NCBI GenBank assembly: GCA_024653945.1
Contig: JANLIT010000001.1
Location: forward strand, 20,641 to 84,640
Reading direction: 5' to 3'
Length of the DNA: 64,000 nt
DNA from: Candidatus Campbellbacteria bacterium
GTDB lineage: Bacteria > Patescibacteriota > Minisyncoccia > Phycocordibacterales > EsbW-18
Part shown: positions 5,128 to 33,550 of the stretch, piece by piece
Layout: each line of letters opens with the position of its first letter
Position numbering within the stretch: the first letter of the stretch is position 1
Made by a program: the position numbers and the translations under genes
The notes under the pieces: model-generated
What the model saw: only the letters and a program-made list of their open reading frames with translations
Told to the model about the DNA's origin: nothing
Database searches by the model: none

Positions 5128-5619
5128 TTAGGCTGTTGGGGTCTCTTCTGGAGCTAGTACTGGTACTTCTTCTGCTAGGGTTGCTGGAGTTTCTTCAACA
5201 GAAACCACTGGAACTTCTTCTGCGACAGGCGTTGGTACCTCCTCAACAGGAGCTACTGGAACTTCTTCTGCAACAGATGCCTCAACTATGGCCTCCGCTT
5301 GAACTGGTGCTGGAGCTACTGTTACTTCGGGCTCATCCTTCTTGATAGGACTTTTCTTAGGAAGAGCGTTTCGCTTTTTGCCCTCAACTGCTCCAGCTGT
5401 TACGAGCATGTTGTATACCGTGTCTGATGGTTGTGCTCCTTTAGACATCCAGTACTTTGCTTTTTCAGAGTCAAGTGTTTTTTGCTTTGTCACTGCATTA
5501 TAAAAACCAATTTGGTCAACGTGTTTGCCCGCCTTTGGACCCTGTGTTGACTCAAGAACAACCACTCGGAATGAGGGGTCATTTTTTCGTCCAACGCGTT
5601 GTAGTCGTATTTTTAGCAT
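5128..5619 (-). CDS. rpsP: 30S ribosomal protein S16 with a low-complexity C-terminal extension (EEVP/APV repeats)
   Basis: N-terminus MLKIRLQRVGRKNDPSFRVVV...GFYN is canonical S16. About 60 C-terminal residues are Pro/Glu/Val-rich repeats. Confidence 0.85.
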   Translation of the reverse strand: MLKIRLQRVGRKNDPSFRVVVLESTQGPKAGKHVDQIGFYNAVTKQKTLDSEKAKYWMSKGAQPSDTVYNMLVTAGAVEGKKRNALPKKSPIKKDEPEVTVAPAPVQAEAIVEASVAEEVPVAPVEEVPTPVAEEVPVVSVEETPATLAEEVPVLAPEETPTA

Positions 5620-5735
5620 GTGAAATGAAAACTGCCATCTGGCAGTTGTGATACTGTACCAAATACTCGCATAAAAGACAATCCCACCCTGAGCTTAGGG
5701 TGGGATTGAAAGAACAAACAGAAAGGAGAACCCAT

Positions 5736-6398
5736 CTAGTTTCCCGACCACGTGAACTTGTGCGTCCAGTTACTTGAGCTGGTGTTGGTGTAGCTGTTGC
5801 AGTTGACGCCCGGTGTACAATAATCACCGCTCGGAAACCGCGACGTGTTTTTGGAACGAGAAGCCGAGCCTGTGGTGGTGTAACCTGCATGCACGTGTGT
5901 TCCATTCCACGCACCACATCCTGTGTCTTGAATCATGCTTCCGAGAGTTCGTGAGTTGAGTTCCCCACTACCAGACGTGGCAATGGAAAAATCTGCAGTT
6001 GAATTCATTGACGCGTGAAGGTATCGCATCGTGCCTCGAATTTGCAGAGCAGCAGTATCCACAATGTATGCTCTCTGCTCTTCGCATCTGTCACCACCGC
6101 CACTAATACGAACGCGTTTTCCTATGAGTCGATTGGTTTCGCGCGGAGAACCGCCTCTCGTAAAAATACCTCGGAAATAAACAGAGGAGGTACTCGTGTT
6201 GTCCCAATCAAGAAAGTCCCCACTTCCAGCTCCACACGAACCACCATGGAAACCGCAGGTGAGAGTTGGTGCTTGTCCGGAAGAACCAGACGCTGGGAGC
6301 ATCTTCACAAGATACGTGACGAGCGGGGCACTCTCGGTGGGCACGGAAAAACCCAACAGCACACCAAGAAAAATCGGGAACATCCATCGGAATCTCAT
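5736..6398 (-). CDS. secreted hypothetical protein (signal peptide; Gly/Ser/Thr/Cys-rich)
   Basis: N-terminal hydrophobic signal MRFRWMFPIFLGVLLGF. I recognise no family. GC about 52%. Confidence 0.45.
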   Translation of the reverse strand: MRFRWMFPIFLGVLLGFSVPTESAPLVTYLVKMLPASGSSGQAPTLTCGFHGGSCGAGSGDFLDWDNTSTSSVYFRGIFTRGGSPRETNRLIGKRVRISGGGDRCEEQRAYIVDTAALQIRGTMRYLHASMNSTADFSIATSGSGELNSRTLGSMIQDTGCGAWNGTHVHAGYTTTGSASRSKNTSRFPSGDYCTPGVNCNSYTNTSSSNWTHKFTWSGN

Positions 6399-27391: not shown

Positions 27392-28249
27392 CTACTGGGA
27401 GGGCCAGGTGGGCATGAAGCCCTTCGGTTCTGGGATTACTCGACCCGGCGCGAAGGGTGACTCCATCACCGCACCAGTCCACCGAGACATGTCTCCCGTT
27501 TCAAAGCCATCCCGAAAGATGTCAGGTGTCCAAAGAACAACGGTTGTCGTCCCGCTGTTCTGGTACCCGTTCACCGAGTACCCGCCAGAGATGATGATGT
27601 TCTCCGTACGAATGTACTCGGCGGTCTCGTCGAGAATCGCCTGATCCGGGGTCGTTCCCCCAGGCCAGTATCCGTTCCCGACACCAACGTAGTAGAGCGC
27701 ATCCAAAACCGTCGAGTCGGATTCGCCGGAATTGTAGACGATGTCGTCACCGCCACCGAGTACCCGGTCGGGACCGTAGTTCACCCCTACACGCGTCGTT
27801 CCGTTGAGGGTTGTACCGACGAGGCTACCGATGTAGTTGAGCTGGCCGTCCGAGCTCAGAATGGCGAACTGAACGTTCGCCAAGGTGAACCACTCCAAAC
27901 CGTCGCCCAAGGCGACGAGCCCGAAGTGCATCCTGTTGCCATACTCGCCGTTGAATGGTGCTGGAGGTTCCGAGATGCCGCGCCACGAGCTGAAGCTCGT
28001 GACCATGACGTCGCCCGGGAAGTACCGGACGAGCGCCGAGTACGCTGTTGGGTCCGTCTCGCGGTCTCCAACGACCGAAAGACCGTTTTGAAGCGCGTTC
28101 ATGGCGTTCGCCAGGTAACCGCTCCAGCTCGGCGAGCCGAAGCCATTCGGCGCCGGCGAAGCATAGACATTGACCAAGATGTCGGCCGATACTGCCGTCG
28201 GCAAAGCGACGACGAACAGAACTGCGAGGACTACGACGAATCTCTTCAT
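27392..28249 (-). CDS. secreted hypothetical protein, GC-rich (~58%)
   Basis: ATG at 28249 with an AAGGAG SD. Signal peptide MKRFVVVLAVLFVVALPTAVSA. Gly/Asn/Thr-rich, beta-rich-looking. Confidence 0.5.
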   Translation of the reverse strand: MKRFVVVLAVLFVVALPTAVSADILVNVYASPAPNGFGSPSWSGYLANAMNALQNGLSVVGDRETDPTAYSALVRYFPGDVMVTSFSSWRGISEPPAPFNGEYGNRMHFGLVALGDGLEWFTLANVQFAILSSDGQLNYIGSLVGTTLNGTTRVGVNYGPDRVLGGGDDIVYNSGESDSTVLDALYYVGVGNGYWPGGTTPDQAILDETAEYIRTENIIISGGYSVNGYQNSGTTTVVLWTPDIFRDGFETGDMSRWTGAVMESPFAPGRVIPEPKGFMPTWPSQ

Positions 28250-28353
28250 CTTTCTTCTCCTTGTTGTTAGAGAACAAAAAAGAGGCACGATGCCTCCTCA
28301 TAACCACAAGAATTCTACATTATTCTCATGTTCTTGTCTAGACCACCCTTCTC

Positions 28354-29233: not shown

Positions 29234-29234
29234 A

Positions 29235-29283
29235 CGATTTCACAAAATCGCGTCGCGTAACTGTCCATTGAAACGCGACACCC
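29235..29283 (-). promoter_or_regulatory. operator/5'-UTR hairpin gtcgcgt-N14-acgcgac upstream of the ATL gene
   Basis: cgatttcacaaaatcgcgtcgcgt aactgtccattgaa acgcgac. The stem shows compensatory A/G-T/C changes relative to the 28804-28830 copy, while the loop is conserved. Confidence 0.5.
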
Positions 29284-29300
29284 TTATTCTACCATTCGCG

Positions 29301-29351
29301 CGCCTGCCTGCCCTGCCTGCCCTGCCTGCCGGCAGGCAGGCGGCAGGCAGG
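29301..29351. repeat. G/C-rich tandem-plus-inverted repeat (gcctgccct x3, then ggcaggcaggcggcaggcagg), a strong hairpin/cruciform
   Basis: Read directly. It marks the boundary between the ATL gene region and a GC-rich non-coding stretch. Confidence 0.7.
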
Positions 29352-30249
29352 AATTAGGGAATATAAAACGTAAAATATGGAAAATAATAATATGGAATAG
29401 AGAAAAGGCCCGAGCGCAAGCGTCGGACCTCTTCAGTAACTACCGGCGACCGGCAATGATACTGGAAAAAAGAACGGAATCTACGTCGACCTCTGGAGCG
29501 AACTCCTGAGGATAGATTAAGACGTTGGGAACAGAGCGGCCTATCGCTCTTGGATGATTTTGCGTGTCGCGACCGAAGTCGAGAGCACGTGTCCTGGGTT
29601 GGACATCATCCGTTCCCACGAGCCCTGTGTTTCACTGATGTGTCACACAGAACCATTACCGAGTTATTGCAGAAAGGGTGAGCTCCCTGCGATTTCTCGT
29701 TTGCCTCTGAGGCGATCGTGACCAATTCCTTTTAAGGGCGCTGGTCTCGTTCGTTGTGATGATGTCTGAAGGGTTTTGAGTCCTCCGAACACCCCACTGT
29801 AGAAGTTGTCGATTCTGCCGCAAGCGACAGAGTGCTAGGTCCGACATCTCCTCCTGGTGCAATGGAAACCGAGTTGCTCGCAAGATTGCTCCCGCGTGCT
29901 TCTCTCCCATAGTTTCCCTCGGCTCATTCCACGTTGTCTCACATCGACATTCCCTTTGAGGAGAAGCAAACCGAAGTTCGCAGTCATCCCAACTGGACTA
30001 TCGCGTCTGATGCTAGGCACCGGACTGAAGTGGTTTCAGAGAGAACATTGCACTGTTCTCCTTACCGTGTAACCAATCACTCTCGGTTTGTTGTGGTCCT
30101 CTTGCGAGAGCCGTAACGTACCGCATGCTTGGTATGTGAGAAGTATACGGATAGTGAAGTTGTTGTCAATCACATATCTCGTTTCTCAATAAAAAATACC
30201 TTTCGTCAAATTTTTTGTTTAAATGCATCCCTGTACCGAAAACAGCACG

Positions 30250-30278
30250 TTGACATACAGGAGATACCTGTATACTAT
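30250..30278 (+). promoter_or_regulatory. sigma70-type promoter TTGACA-N17-TACTAT whose spacer is a perfect palindrome (tacagg agat acctgta), a candidate operator
   Basis: -35 at 30250-30255, -10 at 30273-30278, exact 17-bp spacer. The inverted repeat spans 30256-30272. Confidence 0.6.
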
Positions 30279-30558
30279 CCATTTTGGTTCAGGCAAACAC
30301 TCGGTGGCTTGCTGGTCTTTCTGGGGGCGGGGATGAGCCCAAACCTAGAGAGTTTAAAGGGCGATGAGCCCGAACAGCCAATAGTAGACAGGAAACTGCT
30401 ACTGTTTCGAGGGTTCAATTCCCTTGGGGTGGCGGAGAGATGATCTTGAGTAGCGTAGACTAGGCGGGAGACGGAGAAGCTTTGGCTCTGGCCAAGGTGG
30501 AGTCGCCACTGAAAAACCGCCCTCTCAGGAAATATGCTCGAAGTCGCTTGAACCACAG

Positions 30559-30592
30559 TGTCACTCTTTCGGGGGTGACATTTTATTTTTTT
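30559..30592 (+). terminator. intrinsic terminator on the + strand (tgtcac...gtgaca followed by ttttattttttt)
   Basis: Hairpin followed by a 12-nt T-rich run. It closes a ~300-nt transcription unit that starts at the 30250 promoter. Confidence 0.5.
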
Positions 30593-30595
30593 ACA

Positions 30596-31162
30596 TTACT
30601 TTTCTCGCCGAAAACAATCAACGGAGTGGTCATTCACCATTCCCGTTGCCTGCATGTGTGCATACACCGTTGTTGAGCCAAGAAACTTAAATCCACGTTT
30701 TTTTAAGTCCAATGCAAGCGCATCCGATTCTTTTATTGTTGGTTTGTAGTCCTTGAGTGTTTTTATTTTGTGTTGGATTGGTTTTCCGCCAACAAAACTC
30801 CATATATATTTTGAAAACGTGCCAAATTCTTTCTGTACTTCAAGAAAACGCCGTGCATTGTTAATTGCCGCTTCAATTTTTGCACGGTTGCGAATGATGC
30901 CCTCATTTGTAAGAAGCTGACGTACTTCCCTTTTTCCAAAAAGTGCTACTCTCGAGGGATTAAACTGCGAAAATGCTTTTCTATAGTTTTCTCTTTTGCG
31001 CAACACCGTGAGCCACGAAAGACCGGCTTGTGCACTTTCAAGCACGAGAAATTCAAAAATCTTTTTGTCGTCATATACAGGAACACCCCACTCTTCGTCG
31101 TGGTACTTCTCATAGAGTTCGTCACCAATTTTGATCCACGGACAACGTTTTTTCATACACAC
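30596..31162 (-). CDS. tag: DNA-3-methyladenine glycosylase I
   Basis: YHDEEWGVPVYDDKKIFEFLVLESAQAGLSWLTVLRKRENYRKAF...IIRNRAKIEAAINNA matches the Tag family. Confidence 0.85.
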   Translation of the reverse strand: MCMKKRCPWIKIGDELYEKYHDEEWGVPVYDDKKIFEFLVLESAQAGLSWLTVLRKRENYRKAFSQFNPSRVALFGKREVRQLLTNEGIIRNRAKIEAAINNARRFLEVQKEFGTFSKYIWSFVGGKPIQHKIKTLKDYKPTIKESDALALDLKKRGFKFLGSTTVYAHMQATGMVNDHSVDCFRREK

Positions 31163-31308
31163 ATTCTACCACTGTAAAAAGAGCCCTAATATAATATAAA
31201 AAAGAAAAGATGCCCGACACCATTTTTCATTTTTACTGGCGTTTTAATATATTAGATTGACTCTTCTCGTGCCTCGATAATTTATCTTAATTAATTTTAG
31301 AGTTGTAA

Positions 31309-32535
31309 TTATTTAATATTTTTAATTATAGATTTGAATTCAGGCTTATTCTTATAAAAAGTGAAAATTTCCCATTCGTCTATTTCTTTTTTTCCTACGG
31401 TTTTTGCCTTGATTAATTTACTTAAATATTTATAAAAATCTTTGTGTTTTTCCAATAAAGCAAATTTACACATCTCAAAATCATCTCTAGTTAAGCTCCA
31501 ATCTTCTAACAGTAAAACTTTTTCTATATCTTCCAATTTTTTCCCTTGTTTTTTTAATCCAATACAGTAGTTAATAGCTATGTATTTTTTCTCAGAAGCA
31601 TCTATTTTGAGATTTGAAATAAAATTATATATGGATTTTGTATAATTATATTGTTCATGTTTGACTAAATAATGTAATGGATTGGTTAATAAAAAATTTT
31701 TATTTTTTATTTCTTCAGAAAAGTTAAGTTGAGCTTCTTGAATGATATAAGTTCCTATAAAATACAATAAGTAAAGTGAATCGGTAAGATATTTGTCTGT
31801 TATAGTTATAGTTTTGTTTGAATTATTTTTTTCGTCTCCATATCTTTTAATATACTCTCGATCCTTTTTTCCTTCATTGTGAACAATAAGATTTCTTATT
31901 TTAATTAATTTTTTTAAATCTTCCAAATTTTTACTAATTGGATCTAAATTAAGAGCCATGTCCTTTTTTAAAACTTTTAGTTTTCGATCTAATCCTTTTT
32001 CAATCAAAAGAGCTTCAATTTCTCTGTCAATTAGAAATTTTTGGGCCTCTGCTATGTTTTCTATATTTTCTAGCTCTTTATAGTTGATTGACTGATTTTC
32101 TAATGATAATTTCTTGTAATTCTTTTTATAATAAAAACTAAATAATTTCGAAAGTAAAATATCTAAAGTTGAAACCATAGACACTATAGTATTTTGTGCA
32201 AATAAATGTCCTTGTAATGGTTGTGTCTTTAAAACATCAACAAGTATCTCAGAAACATTACTTAATTCTTTTTTTGAAAATTTAAGTTTTAACTTACCTT
32301 TGGCATGATTTTTATTTTCCTTGGCTTTTTTCTTTAATACTTCCAAAAAGGGTTTAAGCTTTTTATTGTCATATTCTTGCGCATGTTTCCCAATTTCTCT
32401 AATTGATATTTCTTGAAGAAAAATATTGTTTTCAAAAACATTCTGCATATGTCTAAAAGAATCAATGTTCGTATTTGCCTCCCCTTTGATTAACTTTGTT
32501 TGTTGTTTTATTTTTGGTATCTTTTTAGTCTTCAT
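31309..32535 (-). CDS. Lys-rich hypothetical protein with a HEPN-like Rx4H motif (putative abortive-infection/defence RNase); extremely AT-rich (~27% GC)
   Basis: The motif KIRNLIVHNEG (R-x4-H) sits mid-protein in a 408-aa protein. Composition is roughly 15-30 points below its neighbours. It is a single gene with no operon partners. Confidence 0.5.
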   Translation of the reverse strand: MKTKKIPKIKQQTKLIKGEANTNIDSFRHMQNVFENNIFLQEISIREIGKHAQEYDNKKLKPFLEVLKKKAKENKNHAKGKLKLKFSKKELSNVSEILVDVLKTQPLQGHLFAQNTIVSMVSTLDILLSKLFSFYYKKNYKKLSLENQSINYKELENIENIAEAQKFLIDREIEALLIEKGLDRKLKVLKKDMALNLDPISKNLEDLKKLIKIRNLIVHNEGKKDREYIKRYGDEKNNSNKTITITDKYLTDSLYLLYFIGTYIIQEAQLNFSEEIKNKNFLLTNPLHYLVKHEQYNYTKSIYNFISNLKIDASEKKYIAINYCIGLKKQGKKLEDIEKVLLLEDWSLTRDDFEMCKFALLEKHKDFYKYLSKLIKAKTVGKKEIDEWEIFTFYKNKPEFKSIIKNIK

Positions 32536-32737
32536 ATTTATATGATATATCTTAAGAAATAGGGTCAGGCACCTTTTAATATCCCCACCATACACCCGAA
32601 AAACGAAAAGACAATGTGCACGAACAGTGGCAAGATTAAACCTCGCTCACGTAAAACCAAAAAGCCAAGTAAAAGAAAAGCCGCGTCCCGGGAGTTGTAT
32701 CCGGAAACGCGGTCTCAAAAAAGTGGTCAAACAGAGT

Positions 32738-33232
32738 CTAGAACGGCAACTCATCCTCCAACTCATCGAGAAGGATTGGCACCAGTGAATTACTGCTTAC
32801 TTCGGCAATCGCTTGAACACCACCTTCCTCGAGTAGACCACTCCCGATGGCGATGGTTAGCACGATTACCTCATCACCGTGTTCAGGGAACCCAGAGAAT
32901 GCAATGACAAGATTGCCGGCTCTGATACCACCGCCGTAGTGCTTCGGCTCAGTGTTGAGGTCGCGGCTCTGCCAAGCACTCACGTGGCCACGATTCTCCA
33001 GGAGTCGCTTGCCCTTGTCGAGAGCATTGGCGAGACACCGGCCCCGCCGAGCAACGTCATTCATGTTGCCCACCAGAGCAGAAAGTACTGGTGATGCGTC
33101 CGGACCGGCGTCGTTATCAAAAACGCACAGATAACCGCCAAGATTCCCGTCCTCAACCATCTGGGAAAGAGTCCTGGAACCAAGCGCCCTTTCAGCGAGC
33201 CGGAGAATTTTACCCAAATTTGGATATATCAC
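32738..33232 (-). CDS. GlcG/HbpS-like (DUF336) protein, GC-rich (~55%)
   Basis: LCVFDNDAG ... YGGGIRAGNLVIAFSGFPEHGDEVIV resembles the GlcG-family blocks. Weak. Confidence 0.35.
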   Translation of the reverse strand: MIYPNLGKILRLAERALGSRTLSQMVEDGNLGGYLCVFDNDAGPDASPVLSALVGNMNDVARRGRCLANALDKGKRLLENRGHVSAWQSRDLNTEPKHYGGGIRAGNLVIAFSGFPEHGDEVIVLTIAIGSGLLEEGGVQAIAEVSSNSLVPILLDELEDELPF

Positions 33233-33332
33233 GTAGACCTCTCCTTCTTCGGTTTAATCCTAGGAACCGCCTAGTACGGGTTCACACCTGCCGTGAGTAT
33301 ACTCACAAGGACAAATTTGTAAAGAAAAGAAT

Positions 33333-33424
33333 CATGTGACCCTATCGGGATTCGCCTCTCGCCGTACTCGGCTCGAAACCTTCGGCGTCTCTTCGACGCC
33401 TGCGGCCCGCGGTTCGAATCCCTG
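33333..33424. other. tRNA-like remnant: a partial duplicate of the 3' end of tRNA-Glu (tgtgaccctatcgggattcgcc against tgtgacctcatcgggattcgaa), plus a GGTTCGAATCC T-loop-like motif with no foldable cloverleaf
   Basis: A 20-of-22-nt match to the 3' end of the adjacent tRNA. I could not fold a canonical tRNA. Confidence 0.35.
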
Positions 33425-33475
33425 GACTCACAAAAGAAAATACCCCAGATGAACTGAGATATTTTCTTTCGCGTG

Positions 33476-33550
33476 TGACCTCATCGGGATTCGAACCCGA
33501 GTTTACACCTTGAGAAGGTGACGTCCTGGACCAGGCTAGACGATGAGGCC
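33476..33550 (-). tRNA. tRNA-Glu (anticodon CUC)
   Basis: The reverse complement folds as a cloverleaf: acceptor GGCCTCA/TGAGGTC, D-arm with GG, anticodon loop TTCTCAA, T-arm TCGGG-TTCGAAT-CCCGA, discriminator A. CCA is not encoded. Confidence 0.8.

Follow-up and report, generated by a model that had tools for sequence, protein, structure and literature searches.

An uncharacterized family of HEPN-domain proteins, candidate abortive-infection effectors, with a member in a tRNA-linked variable slot of a Campbellbacteria genome

A 64,000-nt stretch of Candidatus Campbellbacteria DNA (assembly GCA_024653945.1, contig JANLIT010000001.1, positions 20,641 to 84,640), termed the window herein, was analyzed around an AT-rich gene that codes for a 408-aa protein of the HEPN superfamily. 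The protein is 100% identical to a National Center for Biotechnology Information (NCBI) metagenome-assembled genome (MAG) entry, NUW02_00210 (Candidatus Campbellbacteria). Its open reading frame (ORF) starts with an ATG from which homologues also align, and a possible longer start, a GTG at 32595, lies 60 nt further upstream. The gene had been picked out by a sequence-only reading, made without database searches, as coding for a Lys-rich protein within a very AT-rich block. Both descriptions hold. The protein is rich in Lys (17.4%), Ile, and Asn and has an isoelectric point of 9.5, and the block at 31163-32737 has a GC content of 27.0% (24.4% for the ORF itself), against 44.8% in the remaining window. 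The gene and the regions of its product are as follows:

31309..32535, minus strand: gene for the 408-aa HEPN-family protein (ORF listing and sequence)
32284..32535, minus strand: N-terminal region, residues 1-84, a disordered Lys-rich tail (1-23) and then one long helix (26-75) (AlphaFold2 secondary structure and per-residue confidence, pLDDT)
31696..32283, minus strand: central HEPN domain, residues 85-280
31876..31896, minus strand: predicted catalytic motif R214-N-L-I-V-H219-N220 (Rx4H with a polar residue after R), placed by homologue conservation
31312..31695, minus strand: C-terminal domain of TPR-like helical repeats, residues 281-408, with a candidate role in sensing or regulation

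The AlphaFold2 model of the full-length protein is all-helical (pLDDT 86.2, predicted template modeling score 0.82). The N-terminal region varies in length and sequence among homologues. The catalytic-type motif sits at the end of helix 198-220, within the sequence KIRNLIVHNEG (residues 212-222), which the sequence-only reading had taken for the Rx4-6H motif of HEPN RNases. Matches to Rx4-6H occur in 38% of shuffles of the protein (2% for the stricter R[NHD]xxxH), so the motif alone is uninformative and its conservation carries the weight. Both key residues are retained across 147 diverse homologues with a mean column identity of ~20%: R214 is found in 146, N or H at position 215 in all 147, H219 in all 147, and N220 in 138. 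Positions R214, N215, L216, H219, and N220 are invariant in an alignment of 25 sequences from the candidate phyla radiation (CPR), and the family consensus is E-x-x-Q-R-R-N-L-x-V-H-N-x-G-x-V-N-x-x-Y. The catalytic HEPN signature is Rx4-6H, typically with a polar residue (N, H, or D) after the arginine (PMC3710099). A second Rx4H match in the N-terminal helix, REIGKH (R46-H51, 32380-32400), is not conserved among homologues and was rejected as a chance match.

Profile searches with family members pointed to no non-HEPN family. The only recurrent Pfam family was HEPN_RiboL-PSP, matched by 6 of 25 close and 18 of 106 distant members (best E values of 1.6e-5 and 3e-6, respectively), followed by HEPN_Cthe2314 (3 of 25 close and 2 of 106 distant members). 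Most relatives are sub-threshold for HEPN_RiboL-PSP; P0031, from a set of 10 further relatives, alone passes, with 29.3 bits against a gathering score of 28.4. Foldseek with the full-length model returned nothing from the Protein Data Bank (PDB) below E = 0.7, and the isolated HEPN domain, a four-helix up-and-down bundle, agrees with HEPN in fold comparison. The best structural matches of the core are HepT/MNT and DUF86/YutE structures (1ylm, 5yep, 7ae2, and 8xdj), and the HEPN domain of sacsin is also among the best fold matches. Conservation, family-level profiles, and fold therefore support membership even though the query protein matches nothing alone, and the protein belongs to the HEPN superfamily, as the sequence-only reading had supposed. 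That reading recognized no other domain, which did not hold: the TPR-like C-terminal domain is conserved in the family and has near-invariant residues of its own.

The protein is predicted to act as a HEPN endoribonuclease that needs no metal, its active site being a composite formed by a dimer. The alternative of a catalytically inert scaffold or ligand binder, comparable to nucleotide-binding or MNT-partner HEPN proteins, draws on the many HEPN domains that are non-catalytic, such as those of sacsin and the C-terminal domains of kanamycin nucleotidyltransferase (PMC3710099), and on the sacsin fold match. It is highly improbable given that R, N/H, and H are near-absolute at the exact Rx4H spacing across the 147 sequences, which is the signature of the catalytic HEPN clades (PMC3710099).

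A word-indexed search recovered 28 relatives, all from CPR/Paceibacteria. An exhaustive profile search yielded 5,528 cluster representatives (50% identity) at E<=1e-3 and 1,315 at E<=1e-30, most of them 400-470 aa long and matching end to end, with the central HEPN domain and the TPR-like C-terminal domain. No names were found among the representatives checked, which their sources describe as hypothetical, as does RefSeq for two plasmid copies, WP_251960624 of Nostoc pANSO36A and WP_015205586 of Crinalium. Hosts in the retrieved loci include Campbellbacteria, Nomurabacteria, and other Paceibacteria, plasmids of Nostoc and Crinalium, a contig with SusC/SusD neighbors, a Pyrinomonadaceae MAG, a 61%-GC contig, and a temperate phage. 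A genome scan of GTDB with the CPR alignment A1 found seven loci only, because the A1 patterns are specific to the CPR subfamily. The sequence-only reading had proposed a new HEPN-family effector; the protein is indeed a HEPN protein without a named family, but it is not one of a kind, and it belongs to a large, horizontally mobile family without a name in curated resources.

The surroundings of the gene in the window contain these further features:

31163..31308, minus strand: AT-rich 3' flank between the gene and Tag, where the low-GC block ends on its downstream side (composition profile)
32671..32712, minus strand: terminator-like hairpin and U-run 3' of orf164 (RNA fold dG -21.6 kcal/mol, z -3.09, then UUUUCUUUU)
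32738..33232, minus strand: orf164, a 164-aa ORF with 54% GC and no Pfam match, in the slot between tRNA-Glu and Tag
33335..33354, minus strand: direct repeat of the tRNA-Glu 3' end, an att-like scar (90% identity over 20 nt; read as a 19/21 copy, ~120 nt downstream of the tRNA)
33411-33422: inverted T-arm-like fragment, GGTTCGAATCCC, between the tRNA and its 3'-end repeat (12/12 inverted repeat)
33475..33550, minus strand: tRNA-Glu(CTC), conserved and anchoring the variable slot on its upstream side (ARAGORN and Rfam; the same tRNA follows MurF in the syntenic locus L022)

The compositional contrast is large and not confined to amino acid content. Windows of 1227 bp elsewhere have a mean GC of 44.8% (standard deviation 3.3, minimum 37.8), which places the ORF at z = -6.2. 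GC at third codon positions (GC3) is 0.20 in the HEPN gene and 0.34-0.56 in Tag, orf164, MurF, and PBP, so the bias is synonymous as well and amino acid content is not its sole cause. The genes that flank the HEPN gene lie on the same strand. The stable hairpin and U-run that end orf164 were not called by a simple terminator scan, yet they make it most likely that the HEPN gene is its own transcription unit, insulated from upstream transcription. A weak hairpin with a T-run in the 3' flank was not significant (z -1.75). Matches of the sigma-70 promoter type were no more common than in shuffles (10 against 7.7 expected), and no promoter is therefore claimed. The neighbor orf164 was considered as a functional partner and rejected: it has no Pfam match and 54% GC, and it is absent from L022 and from homologous loci L001-L021.

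Other parts of the region also stand out in composition. An ORF at 27392-28288, orf298, has 59% GC, a GC3 of 0.72, and no Pfam match, and as a high-GC outlier it resembles orf164; together they indicate that the region is mosaic in both directions, beyond the HEPN gene. The ~1.36 kb between an MGMT-like gene and Tag (29234-30595) contains no ORF longer than 104 aa and has ~50% GC. This stretch is missing in L022, where a zincin gene directly follows Tag. Rfam gave only sub-threshold matches in it, to a palindromic hairpin near 29298-29360, and no plasmid DNA match was found for it.

Comparison with L022, in which Tag is 77% identical, showed that the HEPN gene occupies a variable slot. The order in L022 is PBP, MurF, tRNA-Glu(CTC), a 180-aa ORF, Tag, and zincin, and both the HEPN gene and orf164 are absent. 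In the window the order is tRNA-Glu(CTC), orf164, HEPN gene, and Tag. The different contents between the tRNA and Tag define the slot and make the HEPN gene an acquisition relative to L022. The 180-aa ORF in the L022 slot (5409-5951) begins MIYFIRHGESEANL and has a GC content of 35-39%, below that of its flanks. By eye it looks like a histidine phosphatase, from an RHGES-type motif, and its lower GC is consistent with a hotspot for foreign DNA.

Low GC alone does not date the acquisition. The family gene is below its flanks in GC in 16 of 16 other loci (L001, L004-L011, L014-L017, and L019-L021), by -0.04 to -0.25, in hosts that range from 36% to 61% GC and include cyanobacterial plasmids. It is thus a standing trait of the family and no proof by itself of recent insertion here; continual horizontal transfer or selection for low expression would both be compatible with it. 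The sequence-only description as a single-gene insertion is borne out by the absence from L022, and not by composition alone.

A housekeeping role in RNA processing or turnover in CPR bacteria, with the composition following from a Lys/Asn/Ile-rich sequence, would fit the housekeeping neighbors in the window and the position of the gene beside tRNA genes in several CPR genomes. RNA processing is known for some HEPN proteins, among them Las1 and the KEN domains of Ire1 and RNase L (PMC3710099). Such a role is very unlikely in view of the absence from L022, a genomic position that differs even between homologues 79% identical, the GC3 of 0.20, and the occurrence of homologues on plasmids in restriction-modification (RM) clusters and in a phage genome. 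Distribution is also patchy, with only 28 close homologues among billions of proteins.

The tRNA-Glu(CTC) gene lies 940 bp upstream of the HEPN gene. The repeat of its 3' end falls between the two and does not bracket the gene, and it was not found in L022. A scan of the window for the tRNA-Glu 3' end, allowing 3 mismatches over 24 nt, gave no further copy, and a distal att site is therefore not claimed; no integrase was found. Copies of an imperfect 18-nt direct repeat (78% identity) do flank the gene, at 31200 and 32606, and a third is found at 33432; these were put down to chance in AT-rich DNA.

Similar arrangements recur in CPR genomes: a tRNA and a terminator come first, then a short remnant whose end repeats the tRNA 3' end, and then the HEPN gene. 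This layout, with an att-like scar, occurs with tRNA-Glu-TTC in L001 and L012 and with tRNA-Gln-TTG in L007. In L009, a 2.6-kb islet is delimited by an exact repeat that spans 22 nt or more, and the family gene follows tRNA-Glu-TTC by 29 nt in L004 and tRNA-Gln-CTG by 79 nt in L016. The tRNA-linked set (the window, L001, L004, L007, L009, L012, and L016) represents about four independent positions. All of the upstream tRNAs on the same strand are for Glu or Gln (Glu-CTC, Glu-TTC, Gln-TTG, and Gln-CTG), at distances of 29 nt to 4.1 kb; the tRNA-Ser of L005 lies downstream and on the other strand. Four of 13 loci lie within 1 kb downstream of any tRNA, for which a rough estimate that assumes 45 tRNAs per 0.8 Mb gives P ~4e-4.

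The scars may record serial integration at tRNA genes, with the HEPN gene as older cargo pushed distally; the gene is not bracketed by the repeats, and no integrase is left here, so that this history is inferred. The placement beside Glu and Gln tRNAs could instead be functional, with the protein an anticodon nuclease for the Glu/Gln tRNA group whose expression or neutralization is coupled to the adjacent tRNA gene. We regard this as improbable. Coupling may act, for example, through read-through co-transcription where the spacer is 29-79 nt. Strong terminators follow the tRNA in four of six tRNA-linked arrangements (the window, L001/L012, L007, and L009), which argues against obligatory co-transcription of the tRNA and the HEPN gene. 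If functional coupling were true, the family would represent a novel type of HEPN immunity module, linked to tRNA genes, in minimal-genome organisms.

Approximately 20 homologous loci were compared for gene context. No neighbor is common to them, and none of their neighbors matches those in the window. Together with the terminator after orf164, this bears out the statement of the sequence-only reading that the gene has no operon partners. Stand-alone is an apt description of the window gene and not of the whole family, as some members are built into multigene RM-like operons. On the Nostoc cf. commune plasmid pANSO36A (L010, 1931-10364), the family member is part of an apparent four-gene operon of overlapping genes, with an Eco57I/MmeI-type methyltransferase with TaqI_C (1111 aa), a 183-aa ORF, and a PLD-SNF2 helicase (1100 aa). 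The HEPN protein may here be one component of an RM- or DISARM-like system. On a Crinalium plasmid the family gene adjoins type I hsdR/hsdS and a PIN-domain gene. Among CPR-type copies, one abuts AbiEi/AbiEii (L106, 2107-4789). Genes for an OLD-TOPRIM/AAA ATPase, an SNF2 helicase, and a large serine recombinase are found close to another (L005, 1-5111), and a third has a serine recombinase and a rolling-circle Rep in its vicinity (L021, 2733-5410).

A 441-aa member with ARRNLIVHNEG is encoded in an accessory slot of a temperate phage (L103, 7557-8882; IMG/VR UViG_3300045988_147814). The phage carries genes for RecT, RusA, a replication initiator, HNH, TerS, TerL, and portal, and the member is flanked by the replication/HNH genes on one side and by the late regulator and terminase genes on the other. 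L102 is expected to be arranged almost identically. These contexts raise the idea that the protein is a weapon of mobile elements, an RNase for counter-defense or for use against competitors or host RNA, of which chromosomal copies would be relics. The phage copy, the serine recombinases and rolling-circle Rep beside other copies, and the position of the window copy in a tRNA-linked hotspot, where att-like scars remain but an integrase does not, are in line with it. We consider it quite unlikely, as no family member was matched in 50,697 deposited phage genomes and the ORFs at many chromosomal loci are conserved and intact, unlike relics. Moreover, the prophage HEPN proteins characterized so far (HepS and AbiF-Cd) are defenses that benefit the lysogen, so that this explanation overlaps heavily with a defensive role.

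HEPN toxins are classic components of toxin-antitoxin systems. A selfish toxin or addiction module, in which a HEPN toxin with an unrecognized antitoxin (a small ORF or an RNA) stabilizes its mobile element and does not act against phages, was therefore weighed by looking for an antitoxin. The HepT/MNT structures among the fold matches of the core fit such a module, as do the carriage of the family gene on plasmids, phages, and integrated elements and the 450-900 bp of unannotated sequence upstream of the gene in several loci. AbiF provides a case of neutralization by RNA (PMC12373285). The searches gave a different picture. Rfam at gathering score detected only a tRNA in the whole window and only tRNAs in 11 homologous loci, and nothing, the abiF motif included, was found in 31100-33300 at E<=1. 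Tandem Repeats Finder on 700 bp upstream of the gene in 15 loci yielded trivial two-copy repeats, none common to the loci and none in the window, and no upstream sequence is conserved among homologous loci. There is no MNT nucleotidyltransferase beside the gene in the window and none was recorded in the other loci, no neighboring ORF is conserved across the loci examined, and the window has just 202 bp upstream, mostly terminator. An addiction module is thus unlikely, and autoinhibition is favored over a two-component toxin-antitoxin system.

On balance, comparison of sequences and loci favors the interpretation that the gene codes for a stand-alone HEPN endoribonuclease with a role in abortive-infection-type defense, carried as cargo in a variable slot or integration hotspot by tRNA-Glu(CTC), and we hold this to be probable to a moderate degree. 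By analogy, the family probably acts as a phage-triggered suicide or defense nuclease. The proposed mechanism follows the precedent of characterized single-protein HEPN defenses (DARNA/PD-T7-3, ApeA, and HepS). Expression would be low, from a promoter of the gene's own, and the protein would be kept inactive; its HEPN domains would presumably dimerize into a composite active site. An infection-associated cue, probably sensed through the helical C-terminal domain, would release the RNase, which would then cut cellular RNA, most plausibly tRNA anticodon loops or mRNA. Cleavage would arrest translation and abort phage replication.

Several points weigh against this interpretation. The query protein alone gave sub-threshold noise in Pfam, NCBIfam, PADLOC, and PHROGs (DUF4144, TPR_END_plus, and phrog_13666); it reached no HEPN model of Pfam and had no match to the HEPN_RiboL-PSP model at E<=10. 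PDB sequence searches with the single sequence and two profiles gave chance-level matches (Ly49 and nsp3). The neighbors in the window are housekeeping genes (Tag, MurF, and PBP) with no defense island, many distant members have unremarkable contexts, and the association with defense is drawn from the ~20 homologous loci and not from family-wide statistics. No antitoxin or other regulator for the HEPN gene was found in the searches above. RNase activity, dimerization, trigger, RNA target, and defense phenotype are predictions for every member of the family.

Single-protein HEPN defenses such as ApeA, DARNA, and HepS have been informative on how infection is sensed. If the proposed function is right, the gene offers an entry to a very large HEPN family that is unnamed in curated resources and spans CPR bacteria, cyanobacteria, Bacteroidota-like genomes, plasmids, and phages. 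The different, conserved TPR-like sensor candidate would then bring a new trigger and perhaps also a new RNA target. The finding would, moreover, place a dedicated defense gene in an ultra-small Campbellbacteria genome, a setting in which, to our knowledge, known defense systems are scarce. The AT-richness of the gene across hosts of 36 to 61% GC and its linkage to tRNA-Glu and tRNA-Gln are small evolutionary puzzles in their own right. The biology is what would be expected of HEPN proteins; the size of the family, the conserved second domain, and the tRNA linkage make it a reasonable experimental target.

Comparison with known systems does not demonstrably place the protein in any HEPN family with a name. 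For HEPN_RiboL-PSP, Abi_2, HepT/MNT, LA2681, and all PADLOC systems, it either misses the threshold or lacks the defining context. Abi_2, RloC, Swt1, and DUF4145, which the sequence-only reading had named, gave no direct match. HEPN_RiboL-PSP (PF18735) is matched by 24 of 131 scanned members; both are bacterial defense-type HEPN families with Rx4-6H, and the RiboL-PSP-HEPN clade is distantly related to AbiD/AbiF (PMC3710099, Anantharaman et al. 2013). The new family differs in its conserved TPR-like C-terminal domain and long N-terminal helix, which lie outside the Pfam model, and neither the endoRNase L-PSP fusion nor the ParB operon was seen in the protein or at any examined locus. AbiD/AbiF proteins (Abi_2), including Clostridioides difficile AbiF with its RNA antitoxin, are likewise stand-alone Abi-type HEPN proteins on plasmids and prophages, but no Pfam Abi_2 match was obtained for the query or 141 scanned relatives, and there is no upstream abiF RNA motif.

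HepT/MNT (type VII toxin-antitoxin) and DUF86/YutE proteins are Rx4H RNases that provide the best structural matches of the HEPN core. HepT proteins have ~130 aa and are paired with an MNT antitoxin, whereas the new protein has 408 aa with extra domains and no MNT neighbor, and the Pfam HepT-like family was matched by one of 25 members (E 0.012). Type III toxin-antitoxin systems differ in their upstream tandem repeat array; no such array was found in 15 loci, nor in the window. LA2681-type HEPN proteins (PF18733) combine HEPN with TPR repeats, fused or in an operon (PMC3710099); the likeness is one of architecture only, as PF18733 was not matched in any Pfam scan (the query, 25 close members, and 106 distant members).

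Searches against PADLOC-DB v2, which covers ApeA, PD-T7-3/DARNA, PD-T4-2, RloC, PrrC, CARF-HEPN, and others, gave no query matches at E<=10, and the sole match among 10 distant members was a marginal one to CARF_HEPN (E 0.0088). No sequence kinship to DARNA/PD-T7-3, ApeA, or HepS was found in PADLOC and PDB sequence searches. By analogy, DARNA (PD-T7-3) would still be the best functional counterpart. It is a dodecamer that is activated by single-stranded DNA bound by single-stranded DNA-binding protein and cleaves tRNA anticodon loops in abortive infection. Both are all-helical ~50-kDa proteins from a single gene, with an Rx4H HEPN domain and a non-catalytic helical domain, which is the sensor in DARNA. 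The HEPN domain of DARNA is N-terminal (1-159) and followed by a Pds5-like C-terminal domain, whereas that of the new family is central (85-280) with a shorter TPR-like tail. These proteins are best read as a new, uncharacterized family within a known kind, the stand-alone HEPN defense or toxin effectors.

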